DNA of 62,069 nucleotides, the filler included, from Sphacelaria rigidula (lineage: Eukaryota), in assembly GCA_964200075.2 (NCBI GenBank). It is 10 parts of 10 records of this genome, joined end to end, with 100 filler letters (N's around TTAATTAATTAA, not from the genome) between each part and the next. Parts side by side here need not be neighbours in the genome. Positions count along the whole stretch, not along the records: positions 55,954 to 62,069 come from CAXNAA020022117.1; 9 more parts are not named here. One strand, given 5' to 3'. The position numbers were made by a program, and so were the translations under genes. Positions 30,836 through 62,069 of this stretch are shown here, piece by piece. Positions within the stretch are counted from its first letter, which is position 1. Each line of letters opens with the position of its first letter. Under the pieces are notes generated by a model. That model was not told where the DNA came from. It saw nothing but the letters and a program-made list of their open reading frames with translations, and ran no database searches.

Positions 30836-30987
30836 CTCCGTCTCGAAAGAGATGCGCGGTCACTGGTCAAACGACTAAGGAAAGCAATAAATAACTACTC
30901 CCCCCCCCCCCCCCCCTCGCCTGGTCCGGCGAGAACCCGGCGTGCTCCGTCCCGGCTTTGTAGGGGCGGACCCCCGATGGGGTTGGC
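30836..30987 (+). mobile_element. Subfamily B copy (30836-30900), its C-run, then the 5' start of a long subfamily A copy (30919 to contig end)
   Basis: CTCCGTCTCGAAAGAGATGCG...ACTACT(C)n then GCCTGGTCCGGCGAGAACCCGG...GGACCCCCGATGGGGTTGGC, as at 60109. Confidence 0.8.
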
Positions 30988-36470: not shown

Positions 36471-37865
36471 CAGTTGTGACCAAGCGAGTTAAGGCGAACC
36501 ACATCGTAGAACGATTTGCGAATGGACAGTGGCCTAGAAAAGTTATACTTTCCCGTTCTGTGCCTTTTTTTGTCTAAGAAGGGTACGAAAAACGGCCAGA
36601 AACGCGACAACAGCTGAACATGCCGTTTGGACCGTTTTCGCTCCGAATTTTTTATGCACATCACTCGGGAGGGGGCTTGGCACCCGGGCCTCGAAAACAA
36701 AACGGGCAAGAAACATGTCATTCGCGATATATGGCCACGCGAAAATGGACGTCTCGCCTCCAGAAACCGTTTATCCGTTCTAGGCCGAAAATTCACCAGG
36801 TATACCTGATTCAGGAATTATTTTTCAATCGTTTGTTATGGTATTTGAAGGGACTAGGGTCGATGAGGTACAGCAACGTTCTGGACGTACAGATCTCGGA
36901 GTAAGTGAACGTTTGGATATGAATCGTGATTAGCCGTCGACAGATGTCAGCTTGTTGGAAGATCCAATTTGATGTTCTGAAAAAGTCGATGAGAGATACA
37001 CAGTATGGTTGATGTCTGCACATCGAATGGTAATGTGCACAACCGATAGTGTTCCTGGAACGTTCGTTGGATGGAGGATTTCGGCTCTTTGGTTTTTGTA
37101 CCATGGTTAGATACAGATGTAATTCCTGCGTAAGGAGCCATCCTACGATAGGGGTGGGGGTATTTTGGGGCATTTGTTGCTCGAAATATCGAGTCAGATC
37201 GTCGNNNNNNNNNNNNNNNNNNNNNNNNNNNNNNNNNNNNNNNNNNNNTTAATTAATTAANNNNNNNNNNNNNNNNNNNNNNNNNNNNNNNNNNNNNNNN
37301 NNNNCTTTATTCGACGATTATTACGCTATGCGGACCACGGCCCAATTCGCTTCCGGTGATGATATATTGCTCTGCCAGGTTAAATCTGTTTCTGGGCTGG
37401 CCCAGCTCGTACGGCATCGCTGTAGTTCACCGTACAGCACCGCGATGTACTGTTGTAGGGTTCTGCATTGCACTCTCTATACTGCACTGGCTGTACTCTA
37501 CACTGCACAGCCCTACAGCACTACAGTACACTGTGGTGCACCGGTGGATTCAAGTACTATAGGTGCAATGAAGCGTGGTGTACGGCACGTGCGGTGCCGC
37601 AGGGTGTGGTACAGCAAATGGTGTCTTGACTTGTGCATTTTCGGACTGCACCTGACCGCACGCTGGGCGATCGCACATTTATTTGGCGGCACAACCTGCG
37701 GCCAATCACTGCGGGGAAAAAAAGTACACATAAAGCCACGTCACATCAGCTTCCGCTATGAACTTGTTGGCGTCCACTCTGAAGTTTCGACGCTTCCACT
37801 CTGCACTCTGACTCTATGATCAGAAACAAAATCTTCCGAAAAACTCTATCACTGTAGTACATCCC

Positions 37866-38168
37866 ATGCATACAAGACAGCACCATCTGTACTGTTGTCC
37901 GTGCTGTCCGTACAATCGAGTACTACGGTGCAGCGAAATTGCAGTTCAGTTTAGGTTTGTGCATGCAGCGTGTTGCGAACAGACGTCGCTATGCAGTATA
38001 CAGATTGCCTACGCACCCAAGCCTTGTAGATTCAGGACCGTACTAACAGTACACACAATACTATGAATAGCGCTACTGTTGTAGTATTACAGCCAATGCA
38101 TACAGTACAGCCCTGTCTGTACTGTTGTCCGGGCTGTCCTTTCAGTCAAGTACCACCGTGCAGTGAAG
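37866..38168 (+). repeat. ~70-bp imperfect direct repeat, 230-bp offset, in a TACAG/CTGTA-rich low-complexity tract
   Basis: ATGCATAC...TCTGTACTGTTGTCCG.GCTGTCC at 37866 and 38096. Confidence 0.7.
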
Positions 38169-41100
38169 AAGCACAACTGTCACGGCCAGAGTCAGTTAGT
38201 ACAGCAAGGCGGTGTTCTTATTGATCGTCTTGCATAACGCAGTCCACCATGTATTTCTCAGGCAATGTATTACAGTACAGTTATGGGGGTGAATAGGGCC
38301 CGATTTTGGGCACTATATATCGGTAAAATGGACCGACCACTATCCACTGCAGAAAAAATGACCCGTACTCGAGCCAATCGTATCAATCACAAATACACAC
38401 GTCATCTCCAAATAACGATCTCGCTCATATGAAATTAAGTCTAACTTCAGTTTTATATTTACAAGCCCGTGAGTGGTCGGTGTCGCGGAAATGTAGATGC
38501 TCCGGCGACTGCACTGATATATTGTTCTGTGCTTGTATCGTTTAGCTGTTGCACTCAGGAAGCACACACCCACTATGGACCACCCCACATTCACCATCGT
38601 TCTCAACACCAGCAGTCAAGAACACGAAAAGTGGCAGCAGTTGCGGCCGTCACCCACAACACCAACCCCATTCAACCCTTTTACTCACATACCGTAAAAA
38701 CGACGCAACACAAAATATTCAGACAATGAGCACAAGTGTTGCGTATCGTGGAACAAGTGAGAATGGTGTAGACGACGTTGATGAAGATAAAGCGATTCAC
38801 GCGGTGCAGCTGGGCTACTCATTGCATATCCTGCACCTTTCTGGGATGGCGGGTTTGGAGAGCAATTACTTCATGGGCCCCATGGGCTCAGGGTCGTGGC
38901 ACGAGTGGAAGGAAACACTTTCGTGTTCTCCACTCCTGGAAGCAAACCGTCAACGGCAAACTCCACCTCCGACACAAGACACAAGACGTTTGGAGCTATC
39001 AGCGTTGAACCGTCACGTTGCATTTTGTGTCATGCCGACCAACACGGCAGCGGAAAAGGAGCGCTGCGTAATCAAGGCCCCCACATATCCGTTTCATATT
39101 ACATCGGCATAGAACAAGTGCTGGAATGCGCATGTTGGCGCAAATGCCCTTGCTCATTTTTGCTTTCCAGTATATAGTCCCGAACCAAGCATTTGATCGA
39201 AACTGCAACTTGCCAACCGCGATGTTTACATATTACTGTTAGTGTCCACAGGCGGCAGTGGCAACAAACATTATGGCTGCTGCTATTAGTCAGTGAAGTG
39301 CGGTACACCGACGATGGTCAAAACCGCTCTTCACACGTGGGTTTCTGCGCTTGATCCGTCCGACGTACGCTCAAGCGACTTTCATGTGTGACCTTGCCCA
39401 CTGAAATTCGAGAGGTGAGGGGTACTTGCTGTTGAAAAGCAAAGTTGCTTTGCATAGCCACACAGAGGGAACCAGCACGTAGCTTGTTATCAATGTACAC
39501 AAGCAGTAGTGACAGCACATTCCCTCCAATTTTCGTTGGTGGACAGAGGCAACTGCGCAAATATCCCGCCTGTCCAGTCTCATAGTCTGCTTCTCTGTTA
39601 TATTGATATCAATGTCCAAGGCAGTAGTGACAGCAGACGTCACAGCTGTTTTCGGTCTGTCAAAGGCAGTGCACCGAACATAAAAAAGACTGCACTTGAG
39701 ACCCTGGCTTGTGCGCTCGACAGCGTAGACACAACACAGCCGGTTTTGATCAGAGCAAACTATATGGTTCATGGCACTCTATGTTGGGAGAATAAGTTGC
39801 CCCTTGTACACAACGCACACAAGAAATAAGCACCACATGGCAGAACGGAAGATGCATACACATACCCTGAATAACGAAGCTTGCCCTATGTTGCATTGTT
39901 CACATCTTGTTATTAGTATTCACAGTCAGTTACGGAAAACATCATCGCTGTCTCCCGACTGTGAAAGGATCAAAGGATCGCAATGAAAATTGGACGCACC
40001 GGCTTAGCTTATGCGCTGGACCCAACACTCTGACAAGAAATAGACGCGCCAAGCTTTGCGGTGACCGCGTTGAGTTATTTTTCAGCTTTCTTCGCGCGTT
40101 GAGGCGCCGCCTTGACCTTTCGCGCGACCCTCAAGGCACAGGATAAGTCTTGACCGTTTTTTTCCTTGTACTTCGTCCATGCTGCGCGGAAGTTCGCTCT
40201 TTTCTTGAGTTTCGAAACACCGAGCTTTTGGGAATTTCCCTTTTCACGTCGATAAACGCTGCTGTCCCTGAAGCCGCAAGTGCCGATTTTTCAACGCAGA
40301 TACCTCGGCAACGAAGCAGAAGATTGGAATGCGGTTTGATGCGTGCACTTCCCACACACCAGAACTTCTCAGTGCCGCGGCGGCTTTCCGTAACGCGTGC
40401 CGGGGAGCCCGCAGCACTCAGCAAACCGCCAGAATGTACTAAAAAACGCCTTCTCTTCGATGTTCGGGGGCGTTTCGGCTGTGGCGATTCGAGCAAATCC
40501 GCCGCGGCACTGAAAATATCTGGTGTATGCGCGGGGGGCTGTCAAGTGCCACAGGCCGGTTTGCTTCCTGTCTCGAGAACTATGCGATGAAAACAATACA
40601 GCTGTCGCATACTAAACCTAGGTAACTTGGGGTGGAGCGTGTGCTCTGCTCGGCAAAGGGTTCGGCACAGGTCCGACCAGTCAATGACGTCTTCAATACG
40701 TCTTCAATATCCCTCCGCGTTCATATATTTTTTGTTGACAACGGAGTTTTGGTCGGCAAGGCCTTCATTCACCCCCATAACAGTAGTACAGAACGACAGT
40801 CAGTACGGACCGTACACCACGACACGACAGCAAAGTGCTGCGTCTCTCTCGCGCACCCCAGACATTGAAATTTATTCACACACCTTGTAGAGAACGATGA
40901 ACACTGCTTTTCCAATGTTGATAGCGTTAATCACGTGAGAAGGGCTACTTGAAAAAAAATGTTGAAAAACGTGCTGTTGAAAAAGGTCTTTTTTTTATGA
41001 CGTTTTTTTACATATGAAAAGTAGCCTCATGCCAAAATAAAAAATCGGAACAGAATCTGACATAATTTTGCCCCAATACGCACGCACACACTGCGCAACC

Positions 41101-42139
41101 CCAGATTCAGCAAGATGGGGTTGTTGTCCGTTGTCTACATGACATGTGGCCGAAGTTTCAGCGCGTAAAAGTACTGACAGCGCTTGCACGGCCATGCCTC
41201 CTGAACTGAGCATCCCAACAGGCGACACCAAGATAGATACCGCGTATAATGACATCATCCAGGGTGTGCCCATACGGATTGATGTTCGTTTGCCGGGGCA
41301 GGAGCCACCCAGCAGGTCATGCTGTGGAAGTGAGCGCATCTGCATGTCAATATATGCATCCACTGACGTCTCACGCAGTCTGGGCCGAGGGGACTCCGCT
41401 TTTAGGGCGTATCGATGGCATTGCCCAAAATCCGTATTTTGCTTCGTGCGTCTGGCGCACCACGTAAAACGTGCCGCTGATCCGGGAATATGCTGTCTGT
41501 GTTGTGGTCTACCTCTGTGCCAAGTTTCAGGCTGGTTCGTTTTGACACGGCGGAGAAATCCATAAGCAAAGTAACGCTCGACTTGTGCTGAAAATACATT
41601 GCTAAGCCGTCGAAAGATAGATGAGGTGCGTATGATTTTTGTACGTGGGCATCCTGGCATTTGAGTTGCATTTTATTTTTGGCGCAAGACGCAATACTGT
41701 ATTTTGCAACTCATTTGCAACTCGTTTTCTTCATGTGACTGGAGAAACGTCCCCGCATTTTAGTTTTTCGAAAGGCTCTGATTGGTCGAAAACGTTGCAA
41801 CCCATATTTCTGCCCCTATAAGCGGGCCCCATGCCAACAACTGAACCACCGGGGCGACCGATCAGTGTGGCCCAGACCAAAAGTAAGCACTATCGAGACA
41901 TAGACCAGGTCCATGCCAATCCTTCGGCACCGGCCGTAAATGTGGCGGCTCATGTACAAATATGTCAGCAGGTGGGGTAAAATGATACATGAACAAACCA
42001 TCAACACAAAGTAATCGTACGCCCCCTTCCCTCCACTGTGGCAAAAAGCTGCTCCATGTCTACTTACAAAAATATTTCATACGCCGGAAGAGCACGAGTG
42101 AGAATGACTCGTGGCACTTGCACTCGTTGGGCTTATCGT

Positions 42140-43421
42140 TGGCCGTAAAAATCAACAGAGCGAGCACTCGAGTCATTGCTCGTTGGCCGTAAAAATTAAC
42201 AGAGCGAGCACTCGAGTCATTGCTCGTTGTGGAAAAAAGTTAATAGGACGAGCACTCGAGTCATTGCTCGTTGTGGAAACAAGTTAATAGGACGAGCACT
42301 CGCGTCATTGCTCGTTGTGGAAAAAATCGACCCCTTTGGGAGCGGGCCCCCAGAACGACCAATGAGGCTGGTCAGGAATGACGTGTCTGACGTCTACACG
42401 AAACAGTGGCATGTTGCTGGAAATCCGCGTATGTAATCGCAGAGTTATGAGGAAGACCGAAAGTGCCATCCAATCTATTTTCAGGTGCATGGTGCGTGTT
42501 AGGTAATGTACATCTGATGTAGCAAGCAGTATGGGTCGCCGGAGAGAGCTTTCAACAGGATGCGGCGACCGACGGGCCGCCCACCACTTGTGGCCTTCGA
42601 TGATAAGAATGTTCCCATCACCTTGCCACACAGCCCTTTGTGGTCGGGGTGGACCGCCATTCCCCTCTTTGTTGCATGCGACAATCTTCTCTTCGAAGGG
42701 TATAGGCGTTGCGGCGCACATACCGTACAGTACAGTAACTGCAGTACGCCTCTCCGACTGCAGCAGCAACTGCCGCTGCATACTCCCTTGCACGTTCTGG
42801 GCAGTTCTCAGCGACGGAGATCAGCTACCTATACACAGCTTGTTCATCACCGCCCACTAGATACATGTTCACGCAAGTCATCGGCAGAGGGATAAGCAGA
42901 AATCGTGACGGTAGCTCCTTTAGTCTTTCCACGGCTCACCTGGGTTTAGTGCCTCGTGAAAATGACCACATTGTGGCATGTACACTCCTTCCCGGTTTTC
43001 CCACTCCACCCTGTGTTAGTGTAATTACTACGTTTTAGTGAAGGCTAGCGACCCCAACCCCCCCCGGGAAACCCCGGGAACGCTATACTGAATGCAAGTA
43101 ATATCATAAGCCATACTCCGAGCACCCTAGCTTTTAGAAACCTGGGAAGCCTCATCTGGGCCAGGGATAGGCCCCCATACTATCTTTGCGGTGACATCAC
43201 ACACGGCGGCAGTCCCCGCGCTGGTCGTTCGGGTCTGGTCGATAAATTCCGCCTCGTCGTGACTGGGCAGGTCGCTCCCTGACTTATTTTTTACTATTTC
43301 ACTGACACATGGTCAATCCCGTGTTAGTAGGAGGTCGGTCCCATCCAAAAGGGTTAATAGGGCGAGCACTCGAGTCATTGCTCGTTGTAAAGAAAAGTAA
43401 TGACTCGAGCACACGAGTCAT
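42140..43421 (+). repeat. 44-bp tandem array (GAGCACTCGAGTCATTGCTCGTTG...TTAATAG), interrupted at 42331-43353
   Basis: Units at 42162, 42206, 42250, 42294; array resumes at 43354-43390. Confidence 0.88.
42331..43353. mobile_element. Degenerate piggyBac-like insertion, ~1.02 kb
   Basis: CCCCTTTGG...CCAAAAGGG termini; right flank TTAA, left flank TCGA at the position of the array's TTAA; Cys-rich relic (RTCKGVC...LYCTVC) on minus strand. Confidence 0.55.
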
Positions 43422-44967
43422 NNNNNNNNNNNNNNNNNNNNNNNNNNNNNNNNNNNNNNNNNNNNTTAATTAATTAANNNNNNNNNNNNNNNNNNNNNNN
43501 NNNNNNNNNNNNNNNNNNNNNCAATCAGATGTTCTACACAACTCAGTCGATACTACAGCAGCAGCTATCACAAACAGCTGGCGCCGGAAGGCACGGCCTG
43601 TGCTGTCACGAGACTATCTGCTGCTGCGGTTGCAAAAATATCAAACGCCTGTTACCCTCTCATCTTACGTCAATGTACATACGTCACTTCCTACAAATTC
43701 GGGGGGCCTTGATATCCCCCCGATCTGCGTTCAGATTCTGGGAAAACCGTTTTCAGATTGTGACATACGAATCTGAGCTTGCCCGATATGGGGAAAATTG
43801 GGGGCCATAAAAGGCGTTTCCCGATTTGAGTTCCCCCGATCTGCGTACAGATCGAGTTCTGTGACTGCCATAAAGAATCGTGTAATGAGGTTCTCTCGAT
43901 TTTGGACGTTTTGAAAAACATATTCGTATGGAAGCGGTAATTTGCAACTTGGAAAGTTAGGCGCTCAAACACAGCGCCGTTGGCGACTGATGATGCTGCC
44001 CCTTGACGTTGTGCAGGTTGAGGCCGAAGGTAGGTGCTGACGCAGCAGTTTCGGCGACCCAAGACGTGTTGTGCGCTGCGTATGTTGAAAGGATGATCGT
44101 GTACGATACTGCAACCGCTTTCGGAACATTCATCACTTTCAAATGAAAATCGCACTAATCGTGATACCAAATCGGCGCGGAGGCAGCGGCAGATCTCACG
44201 AGGGTTGTCATTTATTTTGTCGACCGCTTATCGGTCTACGCTTACAGTAACATAAGTAATAATAACCACTCAGTGTTCGCCGTGTCTCTTAGGTTGATGC
44301 CTTTGCGATGTATACGCCGTCTCGCGCAAGACGCGGTCGTACAGCCTAGCCGAAGATATCAGTGTCTCCCGCCAAAGCTCACTGTAAAGTTCTTCGGGAA
44401 GGGCGTAACGTCGCCTTAGTATCAGACTTTCCCAGTCGGACATCACGATAGTCTGACGGCGACGGGGGCGGTTTCTTTTGTCTTCTATCGGAATCAACCT
44501 GCAGTTCTTGTAGAGGACGCTCCCACGTGAACATCTGGAGGTTTCTCCGACAGTCGGGTGATCGATCTCTTGCGGATTTTTTTCATGTCTCACTTGGTTT
44601 CAGTATAGAACAAAAGTGCGACTTGCGCGGATGGATCGCGGGTGTCCCAGCAGGGTCAAGGCGTGGTTCGCGTCGTACAGTCATTGCAGTAATCGTCGTA
44701 TTGCCGGCTCGAACGATGCAGTGGTAAATTTTTCGTGTATTCTCAGCATGTGAGGTTGTTTGCAGCGCCACTTTCTCGTGCTGATGTATGTGGGCATCTC
44801 TCTTCCAAGGACGTGTGCGCCTCTAACCTCAGCACATTTCACGCTGCGGAGCATGGCCGTCTCACATGTAGCCCGCGCCTCAGATAGTAAGAATTTTTGT
44901 AGGGGTCGTCAAGAACGGGACCTTTTTTTGAGACTTTTTCAACTCTTGCAGGACATTTTTCATCTTG

Positions 44968-45459
44968 GGCCGCGTCTTACGGCAAGCAAGAATAAAAAAT
45001 CTGGAAAATTGACGTCTTGGAGCTTCTGCGTCGTTTTATGCCCTAAAAGAGAGCTAAATAGGCGGCTTTGGACACCTTGGAATGCCTTCCTGCACTCGCT
45101 GAGACGGTTCCAGCACACTTGTGCGTTTCCCCAGAGGGCGCACTTCTTGTCTTGGCCAAACTTGCATTTTGCTCGAAGGCCGCTCATTTATTTTCAGAAA
45201 AACTTCGGTAATTTTTCTGCACTTGACCGATGTCCGAGAAAAATGGGCGGTCTACGAGAAAAACGCAAGTTTGGCCAAGAAGAAAACTGCGGCTACTTAG
45301 AAAATGCACAGACGTGCTGAAACCGTCTCAACGAGTACAGCAAGGCATCCCAACGTGTGTCAAAATCCGCCTAGCCCTCTTCGATGGTGCCAAACGACAC
45401 ATAAGCTCGAAAACGGCAGTTTTACAGATATTTCTTCTAGTTGGCCATAAGCAGCAGTC
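44968..45459. mobile_element. Older Harbinger-type fold-back MITE related to 138-615
   Basis: Shares TCTGGAAAA, GCCCTAAAAGAGAGC, TTGGACACCTTGGAATG, ACTTGACCG; imperfect palindrome; flanks TTG/TTA. Confidence 0.75.
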
Positions 45460-48182
45460 TTATCGAGAGAGAAATGCTGAAAAATAGATCCAACACTAGA
45501 TTTTCCGAGTAGTATATGTCTTCAGTCCTATTATAGATTGATCTCTTCCTTGACCTGGTCGAGAAATATGTTGCCACATTTGTCGGGAGGAAGTTTTTTT
45601 TTCGAAAATATCGGAACAAGTCTGAAAAAAAACAGCCCTGTTAATTACGACTGTAATGGTAAATGACCGAGTGCGTCAATTAAACTAGTTATTTGAGATT
45701 TGCTATTGGTCCCCAGAAACGACCGGCGGGTATGAAAAGATTCTAGTCGGATGTGTGCTTGTGTACGAAAGAAAGTAGGTTGTTGAAGCCTTGATCCAGT
45801 TCCCAAGTCGGATGAGGTCTGTATCTGATTAGCCGCGTGTACCCGCTGCTACTACAGTTTTGATTGGCCACAGCATGGCGCGTCATGCTGATTTTGTATT
45901 ATGACAAGGTTGTAAGCGAGGAAGGAGGACGTGTTGGTAGAACAGCGAACCAAGCTGCTGCTGCCCACCTCCTTCACTCGACCTACCGACTAGTCTGCAG
46001 GCATCAATTGGATATAAGAAGAGCTATTTTACCCATCACCTACCACCTTCGGTCTCTCCTGCCTTCAGTGTCGCGAGCTCACAGCCTTGACGTGAGTCTT
46101 CAGCTGTGCTGTACTATCCCCCTTATCCACGATTCTTATTTGTATTCAGGCTTTGGGCTGATGATTCTTCCCATACAGCTGGTTGATTGAAAGAGAACGA
46201 ACCCTCAGTTTGATATTTCGAGCCGAACGCAGGATCAGCTAGTCACATTCTCATCTATCTCGGGGTGTGGCTTGCTTGTTAGTGCTTACCGTTACACTCA
46301 TGGGGCTTCAGAGGCAGCTTGTTTCATTCAAGCAGTAGGGCTTTCTCTCTCGTCGGCCGCTATTCACGCAGCAGCCAAACACAAGCTCAGATCTGTTTGT
46401 TTGTTTTTCAAGTCCTGTATTTTCGGCCTTTGATTTTCACTTGATATTTGTATACACTATTTATCGGGTGATCAGCTGTTTTTTTTCGAAGGAAGCTGCC
46501 TCCTTTTCCACTTCGGGTTGACGAACTCTCAGACTCGGGTCTAGCTTCAGGTCTTCGATGTGTCATACAGTATCCACGCTGGTTTTTGGCGATGGCGACG
46601 GGACCATCAGGGGCTTGAGGTACACGTACACTCGATCTGAACTGCGGTTTTCCTTTTCATATTTCACCACGGGCGGTTCTCAAAAACAAAAGAACCGCTT
46701 ACATGTTCTGCGTTTCAACACGCCCCTCACGGGCCCGTGGAATTTCCCAAGATTCCCGAAGCCAACACCCCGCCAGTGCCCCCGCCAGTGCCCCCGCTCA
46801 CCTCTCGTCAACTCTGTATCAACCGTACCGGCCGACATGCGTCCCGACACACGCCGATCCATGCTTGCAGGTAGGGAGCACGCGGGCTATTTTAATCGCA
46901 GCCGCTGTGCAGACGACTTCTCTTGCCCAAACACGGAACGTTGAACTCACCATGTACACAGAACTATATCGATATGACATTGGGCCAGATATACAAGATT
47001 TTGTCTGTACACGAGCATCATTGAACACGGCGAGGCGCGAGGCTTATGTTACTTGTACACAAGCTCTCGACTCTGTACTCGTTTCACTTGCATACGGCAC
47101 CAGGGTACTCTACAGTTTGATTGCCGCCCCACCAACACGCACTGTAGTGCATACTTGATCGTCCAGAAGGTCGCGTGCCTTTCGCGTTGAAATGTTGTTC
47201 CGAATTGAAGTACTGACGCCAGTACAGTGCCGTTTGAATTACAAATGGTCTCGGTGGGCAATAAGTTGCGGACGGTGAGGCGCCGTGCTGTAGCATACGT
47301 TGGTACTGCTGCACTATCTGAACGAAGTAATCTATATTGTATCGTAGATATGAACACGACGCAGGTATAGCACTGTGCCGGGTGTCCTTCGTGTGGTACG
47401 AACGAATTGATATTGGACCTGTACCATTGACCCGACCCTCCGCTCCACCACCCGAATATCATACGTACTGTACTGTGCCACCCAGCATTTACTGTCCGGT
47501 ACTTTGTGCATTGCTGTTTGTACTGCAATACATATCTATATTGCGATTGTGCGTGTCCATCTTTTTATTATCTACCTGTACGATGTACGTCACCAAGACC
47601 CCAACTCGGCTATTTTCAGTGAACTAGGCGGTGCCGTTATATGAGTATCGTCAGCTGCGCTGATATTGCCTCTGGAAATACGATACGGCATCCGACAGTT
47701 TTTGTTTTTCTCAACCTCAACATGTCCTCAAAACTGAACTGGACGGTTTCACGTTGCTGTTGCGCTGTTCACAGTCACACCTTTCTCTTCATGACGTGCA
47801 GGTTCGTCAAAGGCGCTGTTGCGGTGTTGACAGTCACGGTATGTCTGATTGTGATCACGGTCGTTTTCTTCTTGTCTCTTTGCTGTTACAGTTTATCCAC
47901 CACACACACACACAAATACTGGTTGTTGTGTGCCTTCGACATTTGTTTTTCCTTCGTCTGCACCTGATTAAAAAGGTGTTAGATCGCATGCATGTGCGGA
48001 GAGCGCGGAACTACATGTCGATTGAGACTGTCGACAGTACCCCGCCACTCTTTTTCTTTTTCTTTTTGTTCACGCCGCCTCAGTCCTCAACAACTATTCT
48101 CAATTCCACGACGAAACGTTCACTTTTCAACCCCTGCATCTCTACGCTACCGGTCTGGTGCAATTGCGCAGGTGTACAAGCC

Positions 48183-49065
48183 ATGTCTAATATCAACCGA
48201 CCTTCGACTTCATCGGAGCACGATGTCACGAAGGACGGTGCGCTCCCTACAGACAGCGATAAAACAACTGTACGGTCACCCATGCGGAATGAGACGGTTG
48301 CAAACAACAATCCGGAACGTTTCGATGTCTATGATAGCGTTCTTGCAGGGCACATTTTCAGAGATGTGGCTGAAAATTTCGATGAGGACCGTAGTTCTCC
48401 TCCCCATGCTCACCCCCCCTCCCTCAGTGAACATACCACTACACACCAAGCAGTCACCCAAAGCGCTGACGGCATTCCCACTTTTCTTTCTCATATAGCA
48501 TCTCTCCACGTGAGCCCTGATGCTTCGAAAACCTTCCTTGACGATGATCTCCGCACCCAAACCGGTGCTGAACCCTCTGATCGCCCCAGTCTGGCTTTTG
48601 ATACGCCGCCCAAATTGGAACAATCCCTGCCCACGCGTGACGAAACACACGACCGGCTTCGGCCAAAGCGTCCAGGCTTCATTCCCCCGCGCCATTGGTA
48701 CAACGTTTTCAGTGGCTGAACAAACAGCGTGCTGGGATCAGATTCCCAGCAACGATCTAGCACAGATTGAACTTGAGCACAGAGAGTTGGAATTTGCCCG
48801 CCTACAGGTATTTACGAGAGTCCAGGAGCCCGCTCAGGCCTCCCATAATGTAGATATCCACCCAGAGAAAAAGCCAACGGAACAGAATGAACTAGAACGC
48901 GCGATACGCGAATCCACGAAGGCTCTGGAAATCGCGGAGCAAGAACATGAGCTACTGACAAAAAGACACTTGGAAGCTTCGCGTCATTTTGGACTATGTT
49001 GGCAAGTCTGGCAATCACAACTGCGTTCGTACGGTCGCCTGCTCCGCCCCAGAAGCGACAACTGA
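48183..49065 (+). pseudogene. Frameshifted intronless ORF (48183-48719, continuing in another frame to 49065); low-complexity N-terminus, coiled-coil C-terminus; probably TE-derived
   Basis: Two long overlapping ORFs; ...PGFIPPRHWYNVFS then AEQTACWDQIP...ELERAIRESTKALEIAEQEHELL; no domain recognised. Confidence 0.45.
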
Positions 49066-49737
49066 TTCACCGCCTGACTCACCTGACCTGGCACACTTTA
49101 AACCACATGCACCGGCCCACTCACAAAACGGTACACGTTTACTATTGAGATAACTAGTGCTGTGGCTGTACCCCGCCAGGACGGTACCCACACAACACTG
49201 ATGCTCACCTCACAACTTGGCTACCTTTTGGGAACGTTCTACAAGTCCCGGGAAATTTCAAATAGCATACAATGGGGTTTCGCCGACTCATGGACGTTCG
49301 CATCCTAGTCATGAAGGCACCTCAATCGTGTGTTCGTCACCAGTCGAACAAAGTGTTACGCAAGGGGACTCGTCTCCTAACTCGACCACGTTGGCCCCTT
49401 TCATAGACGCCGGGTTGAACAGTCCAGCTTTACCACCCCCGCGTCCTGACGAATCGTCTCCAAAACCTCCCATGTTGGCCCTAACTAGTGAGGGTATTGA
49501 GTTGATTGGCGTATCATACTCAACCCCGTGCCCCGATGAATCGTCTCCTGTTCCGACCAAGCTGGATAAAACAACAAATTGTGAGAATTGAGGTTTAACT
49601 TCGAGATGAGGCTCAAGCCTAAAACAGTGCTTTCCCCNNNNNNNNNNNNNNNNNNNNNNNNNNNNNNNNNNNNNNNNNNNNTTAATTAATTAANNNNNNN
49701 NNNNNNNNNNNNNNNNNNNNNNNNNNNNNNNNNNNNN

Positions 49738-51643
49738 CCTGAACCAGACAAAATTTCGCGAAAAAAGTGCACCCCTACCGTAGCATTGCTCTACGGCAAA
49801 CTGGTGATCAACGCGCAGAGCCTCTTGCAACCGAGCCAAGATCGCATTTTAAAAATGCGTGGCGGTATCACTCACCCACACACGGGGCACCCCCAAAGTT
49901 TTGCACCAATTCAGCCAAGACGCAGCAGTCGATTCAGCAGTGCACACTGCTACTGGTTCCAGAGCCACAAAGTTGCTCAAATCATCCATGAGTACCAAAA
50001 TATCTCAAAACCCCGCATCCTCCGACAAACCTTGGAAAGCTAGCGGGCTACTCTCGCCCACGTGCAAGAAGTCAAAATGAACGACTTCATTCGGCGTGGT
50101 CCCATGGACCGTTTCACCGAGCGGGCAGGGAACAACATCGCCCGCCCTCGAGTCAGCACAGTGAAGACACTGGCGGACATATTCGTGCACATTAGTTTCT
50201 ATCCCCTGCCAGATACAAAACTCTTGTAAGCGCACGAGCGTCGCAGCCACACCACGGTACCCAGCGTCGCGCATGTGCGCGCAAATCATCAGACGTACCT
50301 GCACCTGCTTGTCAGAACTCGGGATCCATAAAACGTTTCGGCCACGCACATGCACACGAAACAGACCTTCTTATCCAAGATAGCAGTACCAACGTCCGAC
50401 TCGTAAAATTGCACATCCGCCTCTTCGGCCCCAAGGTCTTTCCGTTGCGCTTGGTGGACAACAGATTCCCAACGCATCTGTGAACCCTTGAAATTACCAC
50501 TAAGAAAGGCCAGCGGTTCATGCGTCATGTCTTCAACCGGCAACCGTTGTTGCGTTTCTGCATCAGGCACATGCGTTACAAAACTACCCCAATTGCACTC
50601 AAATGCATCCGGAAACATTGACACCTGACAATCAGGACGAGGATGGAGCAGCGTCACGGCATGAGCCACCAGATCCTTCGCTGCCGCTCACGCCTGCAGC
50701 CTGCCCTCCGTCCACGATGCAGCCTCCTTCGGAAACCCTATATCCAGACTGGACCATCCCGCCTGAAAATTCCGTAACACCAACCCGAGCGCCAAAAGAG
50801 CCGCCATGCATAATGCCAACCAACTTGACTTCACTGGATCCTACCGCCGCGGCTTCGTCTTCACCGCGGACGCCCCAGGTTTCGGCTGAACACGCATGGG
50901 CTCCACCCCCGCAGGGGAGTCACCCCGCAGCGCACGACGAAACGCGTTGACGCGGCAGTGCAATATACCGCGCAGGCGCTCCGCTTTTGAGACTCCGAGG
51001 CTTTTCGCCCCAGCATCCGTCACGCTCTCCTCCAGCTCGACCTTCCGAGCGGACTCCTCTTCCGCCGGATCAATAATATCTCCGGGCCGCGCTCTGCCAA
51101 GCGTTCCACCGCCTCATCACGCTCCTCGGACACCTGCCCCCCCGCCTCCTGGAGAGTGTCAACCGACAAGCTCACGCTTCGACTGACCAAAAAGGCAGGC
51201 GTCTCGACACTCGAACCGGGCGACGGCATTTGCGTTTCGAGGGACTCTAGCAGCCGATCATACGGATCGACTCCGAGTCCCCGAAGCGTCGGTAGGCCCA
51301 ACAGAGCGACACCATCCGTCCCCGGCATGATCGCAAACGATATTGGGGGTCATTTTGCTGGCCCCCAAGTAGTCAGGAACGCCAACTGTAGGAGAATCGT
51401 ACGCTCCGTCACATTTATACGTTGCCCCGATGCAGTGATGGCCTACCGCGCCCTGAGCGAGGACGGAATTCGGATTTTCTCACCGGGGAGTAGACGCTCC
51501 AGCACCTCCACAATTAACACGGACAAGCTCGTGAAGTGGGCGCCTGAATCCAACACTGCGTTGACCGATATAGCTCCCCGCGCCCGTTGGTCGGGGAGAT
51601 GTGACTCGGCAGGGACATAATTGTCTTGGTCCTCGACTGGCAC
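49738..51643 (-). pseudogene. Ty3/Gypsy pol relic: protease, partial RT and RNase H, integrase
   Basis: VLDSGA protease; MFPDA...PLAFLSG RNase H; CAHMRDAGYRG...VRQCLHC integrase zinc finger; PNEVVHFDF core; RT palm absent. Confidence 0.92.
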
Positions 51644-51652: not shown

Positions 51653-52921
51653 CTACTGATGGGTCGTAATCCCCAATTGGCGCCACGGCTGCGCGCGTGG
51701 CGCAGGTATAGACGCCCCCGCTGGGGTCACCGGCACCACCGGCGGGTACGAAGCCCCGCCCGCAGAACCAAATTGCAGTGGTACCCCGACCGACGCAGCA
51801 GCGGATCCAAATTTCAGCTGAAAACCGGCCGGCTCCGCAGCCGGCGTCTCGCCTTGCTCTGCTACTGGCGGCGCTGGCACCGAGCCCGACCCTAGAGAGG
51901 TCGGTCCCACCTGCACCGCCCGTTGTGAAGCAGCAGCTCCTACGGCTGAGCCGGACCCAGAACCGGACCCCTGCTGACGCCGCTGTTGGGAACTCGACTG
52001 TACATCTCCGCTGCTGGAGGATCCGCCTCCGCCACTACTCCGATTACGTTTCCCTCCTTTGTGATTGCGAGGGCGCGCGGGACTCGTCTGCCCAGACTTC
52101 CCCTCAAAAGGCGTTGAGCACTTCCGTGCGATGTGATATACCTGGCCACACTGATAGCAAGTAATACTGGAGGCGGCACTGCCTGCGGATTTTGATCCGC
52201 GGTTACGCGAGCTCGAAGACTGCGGCGACGAAGTGGATGATTTTCCGAATACTTCGACCCGCTGCCATGCCTGAGCTTCAGCCACCACGGTATCCATGAC
52301 TAAATACGGGTCCGACTTCCAATTTGTTTTTTGTTGTAACTGTACAAGCACGGCCTGCTTAAATTCCGCCGGTGCCAGACCCTCCACCATCGCTTTCGTG
52401 ACCACCGCAGCGGGCCCTGGGCGAAATTTCCCATCGGACGAACGATAAATCACCTCTACGTTGGAAGTTTCCGAAAAATACGTCTCCAACTTACCCATTA
52501 TGAGTTCCACCCTCTCACGCATGGTCCTCCCCTTGTGTTTCATTGCGACAGCCTTCGCCACTGCCGCGGACGCCTGAGTAAGCTCTACCTCCGCTCCTGC
52601 CGCCTGCCCTGCGCGCTTCTTCACCGCTGCGGCCAACTGCAGCGGCGTTATGGTATGCTTTTCGTGAAACCTTCTCGCGAAGACGCGTTGCAGGGGGGTA
52701 GGCCCTAATTGCGCCATAGAAACCACCTGATGCCTTACCGCACCCCCTGCATTCGCATGCTCCACCCTCCTTTTGTATTCCACGTGTTTCGTGTAAAACG
52801 AAGGAGGAGCACCCTCAGAATACAAATTCCTGTAACTGGGCGGCCGAAAATTTTCCCTCAGAACGACTGGGGTTACAGTCGTTTCCGTTGGCTCTATTGC
52901 CGGCACCTCAGTAGTCGACAT
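51653..52921 (-). CDS. Gypsy Gag ORF, 422 aa, with CCHC zinc knuckle
   Basis: Uninterrupted ORF; CYQCGQVYHIARKC; between LTR and protease. Confidence 0.88.
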   Translation of the reverse strand: MSTTEVPAIEPTETTVTPVVLRENFRPPSYRNLYSEGAPPSFYTKHVEYKRRVEHANAGGAVRHQVVSMAQLGPTPLQRVFARRFHEKHTITPLQLAAAVKKRAGQAAGAEVELTQASAAVAKAVAMKHKGRTMRERVELIMGKLETYFSETSNVEVIYRSSDGKFRPGPAAVVTKAMVEGLAPAEFKQAVLVQLQQKTNWKSDPYLVMDTVVAEAQAWQRVEVFGKSSTSSPQSSSSRNRGSKSAGSAASSITCYQCGQVYHIARKCSTPFEGKSGQTSPARPRNHKGGKRNRSSGGGGSSSSGDVQSSSQQRRQQGSGSGSGSAVGAAASQRAVQVGPTSLGSGSVPAPPVAEQGETPAAEPAGFQLKFGSAAASVGVPLQFGSAGGASYPPVVPVTPAGASIPAPRAQPWRQLGITTHQ

Positions 52922-53232
52922 TCTCGAGCGGAAAATCGAAGATTTCTGAAACCTTCTCGAACTTCAGTTCACACCTGCTTTCTTCGCCGCTCACACAGCC
53001 CTGGGGTCCTATAAACACCCGCTGTTCGCAGCTCCAGCATGTCTCCAGTCTGGATCAATCACGGGCCAGTCGCCTTTGCAGCTACCTCAGCTTTAAACCT
53101 CCTCACGCGTCCGTGAAGCTCTATGCCCGAAGCTAATCACAAGCTGTCCAGACGTCTCCCTGCTGAAAATTTTCAGCAGTCTCAAACGATAGCACCAACT
53201 AGCACGCCTAGCACTAGCACTAATATCGATAT

Positions 53233-55314: not shown

Positions 55315-55495
55315 GAAGCTGTTCAAAATAGTTTTTCGTTGCGCAGTAAAATTGGGCAAAACAAAACATTTTGAACAGCTTCATCTGCTACACATGTCCC
55401 ATACACATGTACGGGATATGTGGGGCAGATGAAGCTGTTCAAAGTAGATCCTTTTTATTTTAAACAGCTTCATCTGCTACATAAATCCGATACAC
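55315..55495. repeat. Four alternately oriented copies of a GAAGCTGTTCAAA/CATCTGC motif forming overlapping inverted repeats
   Basis: 15-bp perfect IR 55315-55329/55368-55382; ~36-bp-arm IR 55370-55443; further copy from 55459. Confidence 0.85.
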
Positions 55496-55853: not shown

Positions 55854-56877
55854 NNNNNNNNNNNNNNNNNNNNNNNNNNNNNNNNNNNNNNNNNNNNTTA
55901 ATTAATTAANNNNNNNNNNNNNNNNNNNNNNNNNNNNNNNNNNNNNNNNNNNNGGAAGCAAGATCCACTGTCCTATGACAATGGAAAGCAATATGATGAG
56001 TACACCCCCCCCCCCCCTCCCTCTCTCTCGTCTCTATTGGTCAATGGTCATATGACTAGGCATGCAATATCATGAGGACGCCCCCCACCCGCCTCTAATG
56101 GTGCATGACGCCGGGTATGTATTTCACCTGGGAAGACAGCCCCAAGGAAATCGCGAACGTGTTTACTTTGAGACGCAGGAGGAACGGACTGGAACAAGAC
56201 ACAAGTGGGGCAAACAGACAAGAGCAAGGGCAGGGAGGAAGAGGAAAAGGGGAGAAGAGAAAAGGGGGAAAATATAAGGGTAACGGTAAGGGTGTGTATT
56301 TATGTTGGGCTGCGGTCAGAAAACGGTACACGTCGCCTCTTTTTGGCCAGTTTTTAGGATACACAGTGGTCAATCAGCGTGTGTTTTTCGTAGCGCGCAG
56401 GAGATATGGACTCCACCTGATTTTACTCGTTTTCATCCAGAACACGCAATGCTACATTCTTTCCACACGTTCACGGGATGAAAAAAAGGGGCACGAGTAT
56501 GGGACATGATTATGGGACATGCGTATGGGACTGCATCTCCTCGTCGGCCCTACAGCCGGTGTTGAAATGTACCAGATGTACCATCCGGGCGGGGCGACCA
56601 TATCATAGAGGCGCCATACATGTCGGAATATCAAAAGATGACGTGGGCTAGATTGTTACCTAACCGGTCGAAGGGTTCGCAACGACCAAATAGCCAGACG
56701 AGCACTCGTAACATGCGTCTCCTCTGTTATGGTACTCCCCTCGTTTCCCCGTGCCCTCGCGCCAGATCGACGACATCATCTAATCAAAACCGGGTGATAG
56801 GGTGTGAGTTCAATCGCTGGGCGGACAACGATATAAGCAAGCGTCGAATCAGCGCGCAGTCTTGTACAAGTGCAGTT

Positions 56878-57592: not shown

Positions 57593-57897
57593 GCACAAAG
57601 TTGATCATACCCAGTGGTGTTTGCGAGAATTCCACTCCGGAATAAATGCAGCGAATGGGATTGCATACTGCCTAGTACTGAAGCGCGTGTGCAACACGCC
57701 GTCAGGCGCAGCATATAGCACAGTGCAGTGTAGTTGTACAGTACACAAGAACGAGAACTAGAACAAGAGGAGAAAAAAATAGGCCTCCCGATCAATCACT
57801 GACGAAAATGAAAACACTTCACATATTTGGAACCGCAAGTGGTGCTCGAAGACCTCCCTCCAGGAGCATCACGTACACACACACAAACAAGTATGTG

Positions 57898-57973
57898 GGG
57901 GTGTACCCATGATCATGCATGCGATAGTCATAGGACCATTGACCTCGCATCCCTACAATGCCGGGACGGAGCA
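57898..57973 (-). mobile_element. C-tract retroposon subfamily A; further copies at 59221-59319 (-) and partials at 18654-18690, 55954-56010, 56039-56086 (+)
   Basis: Reverse complement TGCTCCGTCCCGGCATTGTAGGGATGCGAGGTCAATGGTCCTATGACT...CATGGGTACACCCC. Confidence 0.82.
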
Positions 57974-58049
57974 TCTACTCTCAATCTCACGAAAACACTG
58001 TTTATCTTGGATACAACCGCGACATCAAAGTACGCAAATGTGACGCATC

Positions 58050-58575
58050 AGTATGTGTACACATTCAGTCCTAACCTCGTGTTGTCGGGGCTGTGCTTAC
58101 TTCGACGGTGGCCATGAGTCCATGGTACTCTTTGCCGCATGGCTGTGTTGGCTAACGGATTATTCCAAGCATGTACGCCTTTTCTCCCGACATGACGGAG
58201 ACAGGTCAAGTGACAGAGCTGCCGGCGGCTCGACGACAGGGTAACAATCCCCGCGCTCCTTCCGTCTATGAAGACCATTTTGCATTCCCGTCGTGTCGTC
58301 ATCGATCGACCCCTTACGCCCTCCCTTCGGAAGTAAACGTTGGATTCGGAAAAGAATGACGTCCCCCGTACTACTTTGTGTGTGTGTGTTTTTACTTACA
58401 TATATATATATATATTTCTGTTCCTATTTTTTCTGTTTCTGTTCCTTTTTTTTTCTTTTTTTTTCCATTAGAGCGTGTTTGAGTTTCGTTTTTGTTGGGT
58501 ACGTCTATCATGAGACCACGGCTGGACCCCGGGGGGGGTCAGTTAAAGTGCAACAACCGATCAATCAAATCAATT
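58050..58575 (+). mobile_element. 5'-truncated LINE 3' region (family C)
   Basis: Cys/His relic, pyrimidine tract, terminal GGGTACGTCTATCATGAGACCACGG...GTTAAAGTGCAACAACCGATCAATCAAATCAAT; 5' limit approximate. Confidence 0.68.
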
Positions 58576-58728
58576 ACATACATGCATATATACATGTACA
58601 AATATACACCCATGCACAACAAAAAGAACTGTTTTATATCTCAACTGGTCAGCGAAATAGTACTACAGTAACGTGTACTTTCTTGTTGCTTCACCCTCCC
58701 CCGCCCCTTCCATCTCCTCCCCTCACCG

Positions 58729-58800
58729 GTGCTCCGTCTCGAATGGGATGCGTGGTCAATGGTCAGACGACTGAGGCAAGCAACAAATGAATACTCCCCC
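58729..58800 (+). mobile_element. C-tract retroposon subfamily B; further copies at 60677-60745 (+) and 61163-61244 (-)
   Basis: GTGCTCCGTCTCGAATGGGATGCGTGGTCAATGGTCAGACGACTGAGGCAAGCAACAAATGAATACT(C)n; the 61163 copy has TSD GCATAACAGRGGG at 61150-61162 and 61245-61257. Confidence 0.82.
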
Positions 58801-60108
58801 CCCTCCCGACCGTGTACTTGACGTGCAAGGCTATTCAGATTTTCAACATGAAGATTTACGTCTTTTTATGTACCTGCACGGGGCCCCGTGACCAAAACGG
58901 CTATTTTCTCCGTCAGTGCTTCGTTGTGACGACGGCGCGACGTAGTATAATGGTGTTGTCACATAGACACCCAAAAGTTCGCTTATTTTCCGCATTTTCC
59001 CGAGGCACGCGCTTCATGAGGCACAAAAATCGAGAAGCTTGAAGTGCGTCAAAGTATAAATGAAGAGAGGAGGCATAGTTCACGCCCGCCTTTGCGATCA
59101 TGTTTCTGACTCCGGTTCTTCCAAAAAAAGGAAAAACCTGCCCTTGGGAACAGATCAACGCTGAGAGACATAAACCACATCAGGGAAGGGGGTTTGGGAG
59201 GAGAAGGTGGCGGGTCGGCTGGGGGGTAGTCATGACTCTGATACCGTCGTCATCAGACCATTGATCTCGCATCCCTACAAAGCCGGGACGGACCACGCCG
59301 GAGTTTCGCCGACAAGGCTCACTCACCAAGGACACCACGAGACAGAACCAATCTATGGTACGCATATTTCTTCCAACACCCCCTCTGCAAGGATCACGGG
59401 TGGATGCACACAAGTGCGACGAGAGAAGGATCAAATCGCAGCCTGAGGGAGGCAGGGGTTTGGGCGGTGAAGTGGGGTCACGCTACAGCTATGACGTGTG
59501 CGAGAAAGAAGATGACGTGCACGTATGTGTTGTGTAGAATGTCAAAAACGTTTGCTGTCACATTTTTTCCCTCCTCGATGCTTTCGGTGTCAAAACAAAA
59601 ATTCGATCAATGCGGTACATCATGGGAGGCAGCTTCTATCTTTACCGTCTGCGCAATTCATGCGCTATAAGTAACATGGTAGACAGTTGTACAGAATAAC
59701 AAGGACGAAACTGTCCTCCCTGCCCCCAACCAACGCTAATCCACGTTCTCCGTTACGGCACGATCGGCTGGTTTGTTCATGCGGTCATATACCTTCTCAT
59801 CACGACGCTGTTGGAATTGTTTTGGTCGGTCGGCATATATGTGTGCTACCTGCACATTACAGTAGAAGCGTAAAACACCAGCCGCTCAATAGAAGCTCAT
59901 TTACATTTTTGTCATGTATCGCCCCGCACAAACCCTTAACTTCTTCTGTCCCCATCCCTCTCCGCGTCAGCCAGCGAAATAAGCCAAACTGAAGGCCATT
60001 TTGATCTCCGGAGACCCAACGACGTCATTCCGGACCCGCGGCACTTATTATGGTCTCGCGGAGACGAGGTGCGCAGCATCCCCCTCCCCCTCCCCCTCCA
60101 GTGCTTTA

Positions 60109-60663
60109 GCCTGTCCGGCGAAACCCGGCGTGCTCCGTCCCGGCTTTGTAGGGACGGACCCCCTATGGAGTTGGCGTCAGCTGTGTAACACCCCACTCAC
60201 TGCGTAAGCTAGGCAACCAGGATACCGTCTTTTTTTGCGCGCTTCCGGTTTTTTTTGCGGTAACCATGATGGTAATCGAGCTCGATCTAACTGTGTGGGG
60301 GGATGGAAAAACCTCGATTCCGCACAAAGGGGATAGGCATACTACGTAGTGTTTAAATTGTGAGACATTCATGAGGAAGTGTGTAAGCCATAGCTGTCTC
60401 TGGGAGTGACGATGCGAGAAAATGAAGCAACTCATTGGAGGCTGTCATTCATCCAAATGCAAGAAAATCAGTACGCTTCGGACCGAACAATCTTAGCAGG
60501 ATGCAGCTCATCCTTCATGCAACTCGCCGAACACATCATGGCGCCTCTCGCTTGCCGATTGAGTGCGAGCGTGGTCCGGCGAAAACCCAGCATGCTCCGT
60601 CACGGCTTGTAGGGATACGAGGTCAATGGTCAGATGATTACGGGATGCAAGATCATGAATACA
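60109..60663 (+). mobile_element. Long form (~555 bp) of the C-tract retroposon, with ~45-bp terminal direct repeat and ~50-bp 3' tail
   Basis: Repeat R at 60109-60153 and 60569-60614; only the 3' copy is followed by the ...GAGGTCAATGGTC...CATGAATAC tail; body collinear with 27241-27760. Confidence 0.82.
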
Positions 60664-62069
60664 TGCTCCTCCCTCAGTGCTCCATCTCGAAAGGGGTGCG
60701 TGGTCATTGGCCAAATGACTACGGCAAAAAATTGAGAACACCCCTTCCGGGGAGATGACTGCTTTCGAAGCTCGATTATTTTTAAAGCCTTCGATTGTCA
60801 CTGGAGCCGCCGACGAACGTTTTAACGTCGGAGAAGTTTCCTCGCGGCTTTCCCTAAACAAAAGGAGACAAAAGCGCCCGAAGAGCAGCGCGCAAGGTCC
60901 GCTTCTCGAAGAATCCGAAGTCGAACCGCTTATGGGTCCGCGGTGTCGGTCCGCCGTCAACTACGGTGCAGTCCGCATATGCCGTGTTTGCTTGCCAGAG
61001 TCATTCATCTCCAGTTGATAATGAAAAACAAGGGGTAGGTGCGGTGTTTTTATGAAAGAGGGCGAATGAACATCCATAGGGACGTGGAATAGCAATGAAA
61101 TAATACAGCAGTGTGTCACTTGGCGTTCTCCCGAATCCTCGACCCATGGGCATAACAGGGGGGTGCACTCATTTCTTGTTTGTCTTATTCGTTTGACCAT
61201 TGACCCCGCATCCCTTTCGAGATGGGGCATCCTTTCTACTCCTTGCATAACAGAGGGAGGGGGGGGGGTGGGGCATATTTGCCTCCCCCTACTATTGTTC
61301 GGCTCACCTGCTTCAGGCCTTTGTTCGTTTTCGATCCCAAGCTTCACCGCAATGGTTGTTTTCGGCACTGACTTGTAATTCGCACACTCAAAGTTCATAA
61401 TAGTAAAGACGTTTCTTTGTCAGCCTTGTAAGTCATGCTACCACGATAGGGAAAATGATTTTTTGGGTCATTTCTTCCACGAAATTCCACTTCAAATCGT
61501 CGTTGAAAGCAGCAGCGGTTGTTAGGACGTGATCGTTACCGATAAATAACGCTCATTAATACTAGTTGACACCGCTTTTTACCCGAAGGCATGCGCACCG
61601 CGAGTGGGTTAGGTCGTCTGAAACACGTATGAGCCCTGTTCAGGTGGATTCAAACACCTTGTACATCACGGTACGACTCTTGAGTACTTACTGTACGTGT
61701 ATCTCCTGACTAAATCTGGGCCTTGTGGGAATCAGTAAATGTGCGACAATCAAGGCGTTCCGCAACCCTAGTAGCTGATACAGCCTACATATGTAGAGAG
61801 AGATGAAGAGACCCAGGCAAATCAACACGTTCACACGCGCACCCGAATAGAACAGTACCCGCAGGTCCTCCCGCTATTCAGAGTTTTTGCGTCGGATGCT
61901 TTGCGAAGGATCCCTCTCAACGCTTCGCCAGCCGGAAGCGGTCCACTCGTGGAATTGACATCATTATTCCTTGAAGAGGACTGAAAATAACGATGAGTCC
62001 ACAGATGGACCACCTCCGGCGGTCGAAAGGTTAAACATGGGACGGGAGGGGGGGGGGGGGCGTACCCAT

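Follow-up and report, generated by a model that had tools for sequence, protein, structure and literature searches.

The DNA analysed here, referred to as the window, is a 62,069-nt stretch from Sphacelaria rigidula composed of ten 6118-nt pieces with 100-nt linkers (N44-TTAATTAATTAA-N44) between them. Features that abut one of these artificial linkers are artificially cut, among them fragments of the module at 6219, 18655 and 55969 and an element head at 30920–30987. The window contains Copia RT and integrase fragments and scattered exons (Table 1), and a domain search of its whole length returned no LINE RT. Sub-threshold matches to plant miRNA-precursor models at 207–546, 31446–31605, 45133–45299 and 55365–55449 (E from 1e-11 to 0.4, all far under the gathering scores) are most likely long inverted repeats of MITE-like elements.

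A module of ~72 nt is found in 16 copies in the window, 11 of them full length (nhmmer with a profile from eight copies, E < 1e-4). Three of the five partial copies start directly after a linker and, being cut there, are not genuine truncations. The original prediction had described the module as a conserved multi-stem RNA fold at the 3′ end of a C-tract retroposon with two subfamilies, A and B, in which a closing stem (P1, GTGCTC/GAGYAC) encloses hairpin 1 (H1) and hairpin 2 (H2). The motifs on which that description was built are real. With at most one mismatch allowed, GTGCTCCRYCYC has 13 occurrences in the window where 1.64 would be expected, a count reached in none of 100 shuffles, and the H2 motif GGTC-NNNN-GACT occurs six times against 1.76 expected, with the variable loops AAAC (twice), TTGT, ATAT, CTAT and AGAC. 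The four H1 variants quoted for subfamily B are likewise all present. The copy singled out by the prediction, the flagged copy, is a module-only copy, and beyond 58807 the loose contig ends found genome-wide are poly-C.

Table 1. Position, strand and character of the features found in the window
Feature	Position (nt)	Strand	Remarks
Linkers	6119–6218, 12337–12436, then every 6218 nt up to 55854–55953		Artificial
Flagged copy	58729–58794	+	Module-only, 5′-truncated LINE 3′ end; 91.4% identity to the L123 LINE 3′ end over 81 nt
Flagged copy, P1	58729–58734 with 58789–58794	+	
Flagged copy, H1	58735–58740 with 58745–58750	+	Loop GAAT
Flagged copy, H2	58760–58764 with 58769–58773	+	Loop AGAC; extension 58755–58757 with 58775–58777
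Flagged copy, remnant of ORF stop codon	58788–58790	+	TGA
Flagged copy, tail	58795–58812	+	One variable base, then C tail (8 C, 58796–58803) merging into possible TSD
Flagged copy, possible TSD	58800–58812		CCCCTCCCGACCG; upstream partner CCCCTCACCG at 58719–58728
B-type module	6471–6542	-	Full; LINE-derived
B-type module	30833–30904	+	Full; C17 tail abuts the head of a long non-autonomous element (30920–30987, linker-cut)
B-type module	60677–60748	+	Full, decayed; directly behind the tail of the long element
B-type module	61159–61230	-	~15 nt more of the LINE ORF; flanking duplication is a C run plus CTGTTATGC
B-type module	7640–7673	-	Genuinely 5′-truncated, last 34 nt; 15-nt duplication CCCCAATGTGCAGAC on both flanks
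A-type module	10738–10815	+	Module-only; begins exactly at GTGCTC
A-type module	57897–57974	-	Module-only; begins at ATGCTC
A-type modules, tandem	55969–56085	+	Two partial copies (55969–56009, 56038–56085) with C/CT tract between
Long partner (~559 nt)	60110–60668	+	Non-coding; A-type module 60592–60668
Long partner, second copy	27238–27749	-	Non-coding; A-type module 27238–27316
Short A-type element (~100 nt)	4893–4992	+	22-nt leader hairpin region CCTGGTCCGGCGAAAACCCGGC plus module
Short A-type element	59220–59320	-	Two both-side changes keeping pairs
Decayed LINE copy	18701–22300	-	Same LINE, 5′ part (5′UTR and ORF start)
LTR retrotransposon fragment	33231–33905	-	Copia-type RVT_2, E = 1.8e-20
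LTR retrotransposon fragments	50008–50370, 51656–52963	-	Integrase H2C2 zinc domain (E = 7e-9); 436-aa open frame, weak zinc knuckle
Likely host exon	17834–18220	+	Biotin/lipoyl attachment domain, E = 2e-7
Likely host exon	25298–25741	-	Pex24p-like peroxin segment, E = 5e-5 (below Pfam cut-off)

Subfamily B modules form the end of a LINE ORF

An exact-pattern (18-mer) scan of metagenome contigs identified at least three real copies (L028, L049 and L086) among the 120 loci listed, the others being chance 18-mer matches, and a fourth LINE locus is present on a 5259-nt contig (L121/L123) of a mis-binned MAG. Of 401 genomes from the order to which L121's MAG belongs, searched in six frames, that MAG alone gave a match, and among viral contigs the module DNA pattern had no match and the ORF C-terminus no confirmed relative. 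In all four loci the B module ends an ORF that is open throughout, with 261, 207, 94 and 1363 codons open upstream. The LINE module is composed of the last 19 codons, the TGA stop and a further 6–7 nt, after which (C)n begins, and it encodes the peptide APSRKGCVVNGQMTKASNK, followed by the stop. The TGA is positioned within AAAUGAGUAC, inside the 3′ strand of the closing stem, with the C run only 6–7 nt on. Subfamily B is protein-coding, a point missed in the original prediction, and since its module is the end of the LINE ORF, subfamily B represents 5′-truncated copies of the LINE.

The full LINE contains one ORF of 1382 aa, with an Exo_endo_phos (AP endonuclease) domain at 193–437 and an RVT_1 domain at 763–1012, and the closest solved structures are those of L1 ORF2p and R2 (PDB, E about 1e-21). 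Its 5′UTR is at least 1 kb in length and is opened by a 62-nt tandem repeat (2.3 copies, 82% matches; L123 5114–5254, window ~21900–22250 (-)). Also within the 5′UTR, in antisense orientation, is a diverged copy of the module's first ~55 nt (L123 4734–4779, sense 477–520; window ~21490–21540 (-)), which includes 13 perfectly complementary bases and scores 27 versus 16.7 ± 2.1 for shuffles, a score equalled by the maximum of 500 shuffles. In the full-length RNA this antisense copy might base-pair with the 3′ module; alternatively, it may stem from an inverted insertion that the master copy received long ago.

Relatives of the LINE ORF number 265 at E ≤ 1e-10, and those in Ectocarpus have 66–71% identity. 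The C-termini of 123 proteins were examined (120 listed plus earlier matches, with P0007 left out as unrelated), and V[VA][NDY]G is found 4–8 residues before the end in 20 of them, compared with 0.0015 expected per protein. In 15 aligned C-termini the last conserved block is followed by a linker of about a dozen to about ninety alignment columns, as judged by eye, and then by the island ..SAH..GCVVNG..AMA.., which is positioned behind this hypervariable linker at a fixed 7–8 codons from the stop. A fixed distance to the stop after a hypervariable linker is expected of a 3′-anchored nucleic-acid signal that is read in frame. The three in-ORF differences among the intact LINE modules are all non-synonymous; two fall in the H2 loop, and one changes a U·G pair to U-A.

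Non-coding elements carry a homologous 3′ module

Subfamily A is composed of a non-coding element of ~550 nt and a form of ~100 nt, both ending in the homologous module. The two copies of the long element share 76% identity over 484 nt. In the 27238–27749 copy, the 5′ ~60 nt resemble the 5′ start of the window LINE copy (score 43 versus 17.7 ± 2.3 for shuffles, maximum 26); for the long copy at 60110, no significant resemblance to the start of the LINE was found (score 16 versus 17.5 for shuffles). The loop of the A-type module is 5 nt larger than that of B, which shifts the frame of the downstream half. The copy at 59220–59296 has double changes in two places, GTGGTC/GACTAC in P1 and G33>A with C55>U in the H2 extension. 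Judged by sequence, the module is the 3′ terminus common to an autonomous endonuclease-RT LINE and a non-coding partner.

An extra 5′ head is observed in two long-element copies (60110–60160 and 30920–30970). It repeats the 3′ unit of the same element over its initial ~45 nt, which comprise the leader hairpin, the 5′ strand of P1 and H1, and CGGACCCCC comes next. The head represents a heritable head-to-tail duplication.

Predicted fold of the module

The fold was analysed in an alignment of only 14 full modules, comprising three LINE, five B and six A sequences. The structure of the original prediction has standard pairs in 88.2% of 238 cells, with values of 79.8% for P1, 94.0% for H1 and 91.4% for H2. 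Covariation, which had been proposed as a check on the fold, was not significant in these 14 modules: shuffling of partners left 87.6 ± 0.7% paired, 117 of 500 shuffles equalled or exceeded the observed value, and none of five measures stood out, slid-partner controls included. Changes on both sides of a pair are present in only two cells of this structure, with one more in the extension contributed by RNAalifold. Folding energies were no better than those of shuffled sequences, with per-copy MFE z values of −1.32 to +1.13.

RNAalifold recovered H1 and H2 and extended H2 by G33-C55, U34-G54 and C35-G53 across an AA/A internal loop; P1 is absent from its consensus. For the intact LINE copies L028 and L086 the prediction is dominated by the full three-way junction, whose helices have probabilities of 0.76–0.99. 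L049 is a LINE copy with an ORF that runs open over 207 codons into the module; in it a P1 pair is broken and the probability of P1 is 0.00. The flagged copy has a C·A mismatch in the closing stem, and the proposed fold is absent from its MFE structure (z = +1.13), with probabilities of 0.00 for the P1 helix, 0.31 for H1 and 0.18 for H2. In A copies a rival 8-bp stem, AUGGUCUU/AAGAUCAU, is paired in 40 of 48 cells, compared with 26 of 30 for H2. The rival stem is thermodynamically favoured in these copies, and the probability of H2 is 0.00–0.01 in four of the six.

The consensus sequences of A and B differ at a single one of the 40 paired columns, where U·G is turned into C-G. Against this, loops differ at 11 of 14 columns (Fisher p = 4e-8) and junctions at 6 of 19 (p = 0.003). 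When events are counted instead of columns, p is 0.001–0.009. Because the stems were chosen from the same sequences, the contrast between stems and loops is partly post hoc. As subfamily A does not code for protein and the larger loop puts it out of frame, its stems would be held by something besides the LINE protein. Copies deviate from the consensus of their own group uniformly (9.5% in paired positions, 12.7% in loops and 8.9% in junctions), as predicted for neutral decay after insertion. Pairing is found in 88.9% of cells on the sense strand and in 67.9% on the antisense strand, a gap that arises because 59 of 280 cells are G·U pairs. The shared variants of H1 are all transitions, and by a hand count 8 of 12 possible transitions in this G·U-rich hairpin would keep pairing, so the H1 variants prove little.

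The motifs of the proposed multi-stem fold are real and its stems are kept between A and B; its covariation and folding energies are at the level of shuffles, and its conservation as a fold is not statistically supported. Sequence conservation by itself cannot tell pairing from sequence-specific recognition, and we regard the modelled three-helix fold as plausible.

The original prediction had further likened the end of the module, one base followed by CC, to a tRNA acceptor, and had suggested either a tRNA-like structure of the Mauriceville type or a small ribozyme. All copies that reach the 3′ end do have one variable base followed by a C-rich tract, but the C run is 5 to 17 or more in length and is not CC or CCA. 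ARAGORN found no tRNA or tmRNA gene. At the gathering score nothing in Rfam overlapped any module copy, and relaxed searches gave no match to a tRNA or tRNA-like structure or to any Rfam self-cleaving family at E ≤ 10 (five copies) or E ≤ 1 (window and LINE); the Rfam matches elsewhere in the window are sub-threshold and snoRNA- or miRNA-like. With no such match, a three-way junction, a (C)n tail and an AP-endonuclease LINE protein, the Mauriceville and ribozyme ideas are without support.

Tails, target duplications and abundance

The target duplications start with a C run (7640–7673 and 61159–61230 in Table 1), much as those of L1 begin with A. Copies are 5′-truncated, very numerous and often in tandem, and the 5′ end is within 2 nt of the first P1 base in 6 of the 11 full copies of the window. 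Logan contigs from four runs were mapped on 57850–59350 at ≥80% likeness, with 33,035 to 49,541 contigs placed per run of DNA or unknown kind. Summed word depth, which is not a copy number, is ~0.9 to 5.3 million in module bins versus ~10–80 in unique bins. Upstream of 58727 loose ends continue into the LINE ORF in 475–622 contigs per run. In run X3, poly-C is positioned directly upstream of 58730 in 247 contigs, compared with 475 that continue into the LINE ORF. Poly-C of at least 16 follows A as well as B modules in the Logan contigs, and joints at which a contig goes back 74 nt correspond to module-tail-module arrays. The module is also present in contigs of run X6, which is only guessed to be RNA and is uninformative on transcription, ends and strand.

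A separate repeat of ~100 nt with CCCCGGGGGGGG, unrelated to the module, is found at 58471–58578, with a summed word depth of ~0.15–0.7 million in the DNA or unknown-kind runs.

Similarity to RTE-X LINEs and other known systems

In Ectocarpus, RTEX-1_Ec32 and RTEX-2_Ec32 are annotated as “single EN-RT ORF; (C)n 3'”, with C-rich TSDs and consensus lengths of 5.5–5.9 kb, and one compartment table gives 435 bp as the median RTE-X copy (Genome Biol 2025, PMC12477816, accessible parts). The same parts of that source list RTEX-N1_Ec32 (607 bp, “60 bp 3' end 83% RTEX-1/RTEX-2”, “can be present in tandem”), ranked first in abundance among the families of the Ectocarpus genome, and RTEX-N2_Ec32 (188 bp), which has a similar 3′ tail. 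Within its main text and supplementary file 1 the terms stem-loop, hairpin and secondary structure have no occurrence, and a shared tail inside the ORF is not mentioned there (PMC12477816). As far as these annotations go, the present LINE has in common with RTEX-1 and RTEX-2 the single EN-RT ORF, the (C)n 3′ end and the C-rich TSDs. The long partner has in common with RTEX-N1 a length of ~600 bp, ~60 bp of shared 3′ end, weak 5′ homology to the LINE and tandem occurrence, and the short element resembles RTEX-N2 as a shorter partner bearing the same 3′ tail. The families belong to different genomes and are diverged in sequence, and they are likened here by annotation and not base by base. As all of the catalogued RTEX features are matched, the C-tract retroposon would be a member of the catalogued group. 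We infer from the shared features and the Ectocarpus relatives, and not from a phylogeny, that the LINE is of the RTE-X type. Our literature searches found no “poly C tail” retrotransposon, “poly-C tail”, “polyC tail” and “C-rich tail” likewise had no occurrence among the papers listed, and “RTE-X” had none among the papers listed on stem-loop tails.

LINEs of the RTE clade, such as Bov-B with its SINEs, have a very short 3′UTR and heavy 5′ truncation, and their partners borrow the LINE 3′ end. The present elements resemble them in the very short 3′UTR, the 5′ truncation and the partners with a LINE 3′ end, and differ from the Bov-B type in the (C)n homopolymer tail, the C-run targets and the stramenopile host. 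The Mauriceville retroplasmid has a structured, tRNA-like 3′ end followed by C residues, at which RT may start. The module is similar in combining a predicted structured 3′ end with C residues where RT could start; it differs in having no tRNA-like signal, a tail of (C)5 to 17 or more in place of CCA, an RT fused to an AP endonuclease, and target duplications. UnaL2 of the eel belongs to the L2 clade and has a single hairpin in the 3′UTR, with a short repeat tail that is used at initiation. In contrast, the tail here is (C)n, and the predicted fold is a three-way junction extending over the final 19 codons and the stop. The similarity to UnaL2 and UnaSINE1, a LINE/SINE pair of the stringent type, as described in the accessible part of PMC1636434, is that an autonomous LINE and its non-autonomous partner have in common a conserved 3′ tail for which a stem containing an internal loop is predicted.

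Discussion

We consider it likely that the module is the 3′-terminal cis element of an RTE-X-type LINE with a single endonuclease-RT ORF and a (C)n tail. It is present also on non-coding partners, and it is a probable candidate for an RT-recognition tail. In its general form, that a retroposon carries at its 3′ end an element recognised by the RT, the original prediction is supported in that the module ends both the LINE and its partner, with stems kept and loops replaced. In the proposed mechanism, the LINE protein would bind the module RNA folded as a three-way junction, which is composed of the closing stem P1, H1 (with a GAAA loop in the LINE) and H2 (5 bp and 3 bp around the AA/A internal loop). 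On the bottom strand, a G run would be nicked by the endonuclease; once the (C)n tail had annealed to this G run, target-primed reverse transcription would begin there. The non-coding partners would be mobilised because they present the same module.

The recognition tail might instead be read as primary sequence, for example through the invariant GGUCAAUGGUC and the GACUA-GGCA blocks, with the fold incidental or partly real. This agrees with the conservation of the paired columns as sequence, without covariation, with junction blocks such as GCGNGGUCAAUGG being conserved as much as the stems, with the lack of a thermodynamic excess, with the folding of the same core into another stem in A copies and with the broken P1 of the L049 LINE copy. 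We nevertheless think it unlikely, given that the sole A/B difference in the 40 paired columns keeps its pair, that two both-side changes of the 59220–59296 copy keep theirs, that the hairpin loops vary in length and sequence between fixed flanks, and that the fold is the predicted ground state of the intact LINE copies. It is extremely improbable, in our estimate, that the module has no RNA function, B being kept as the C-terminus of the LINE protein and A being a recent copy of the tail. Such an account would fit the coding nature of the module in the LINE and the conservation of the C-terminal peptide island across relatives, but A is non-coding, with a loop insertion that shifts the downstream frame, and it has changed in 11 of the 14 columns in loops but in only one of the 40 in stems, the loop changes indicating that there was time enough to diverge. 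The exclusively non-synonymous differences among the intact LINE modules and the fixed 7–8 codons between island and stop, after a hypervariable linker, also speak against this account.

If the module were released as a separate small RNA, whether by cleaving itself or through a tRNA-processing enzyme that recognises a tRNA-like fold, and were retroposed alone, the abundance of module-only copies and the tandem arrays of module and (C)n would be accounted for. The grouping of 5′ ends at the first P1 base, the C tract shown by about a third of the X3 contigs that cross the P1 boundary, and the joints that yield module-tail-module arrays are consistent with this. We judge it very unlikely, however, because Rfam, searched to E ≤ 10 over five copies and to E ≤ 1 window-wide, and ARAGORN returned neither ribozyme nor tRNA-like match and the predicted fold is a three-way junction and not a cloverleaf, followed by (C)n and not CCA. 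A simpler account of the 5′ ends is microhomology of the first C-rich patch of the template (GCTCCGTCTC; GCUCCGUCUC) with the C/T-rich upstream end of the target. Strong 5′ truncation is also usual in RTE-type LINEs, the Ectocarpus RTE-X median of 435 bp standing against full lengths of 5.5–5.9 kb in the accessible tables of PMC12477816. A broader reading, which we regard as quite unlikely, joins several of these elements: the module would be an in-frame RNA signal across a wide RTE-X-like lineage, with the stop codon in the closing helix, such that the terminating ribosome unwinds the module and releases the protein where the module refolds, and it would also be a self-sufficient retroposition unit, perhaps as an RNA of ~72 nt cut at the base of P1. 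If true, release by the ribosome would give cis-preference, and the excised ~72-nt unit would account for copies made of the module alone and for the arrays in which module and (C)n alternate in tandem.

As a likely 3′-terminal cis element of an RTE-X-type LINE and its partners, the module places the odd C-tract retroposon among the RTE-X LINEs and partners catalogued in 2025, which according to the accessible parts of that catalogue are the most abundant repeats of a brown-algal genome (PMC12477816). The module is likely the cis signal by which the partners hijack the LINE. A detail for specialists is that the ORF ends within this signal, which takes in its final codons and its stop, and the C-terminal island that recurs in distant relatives provides a ready comparative data set for covariation. 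The (C)n tail and the C-run targets would represent a natural variant of poly(A)/T-run priming, which bears on the choice of primer by LINE RTs.
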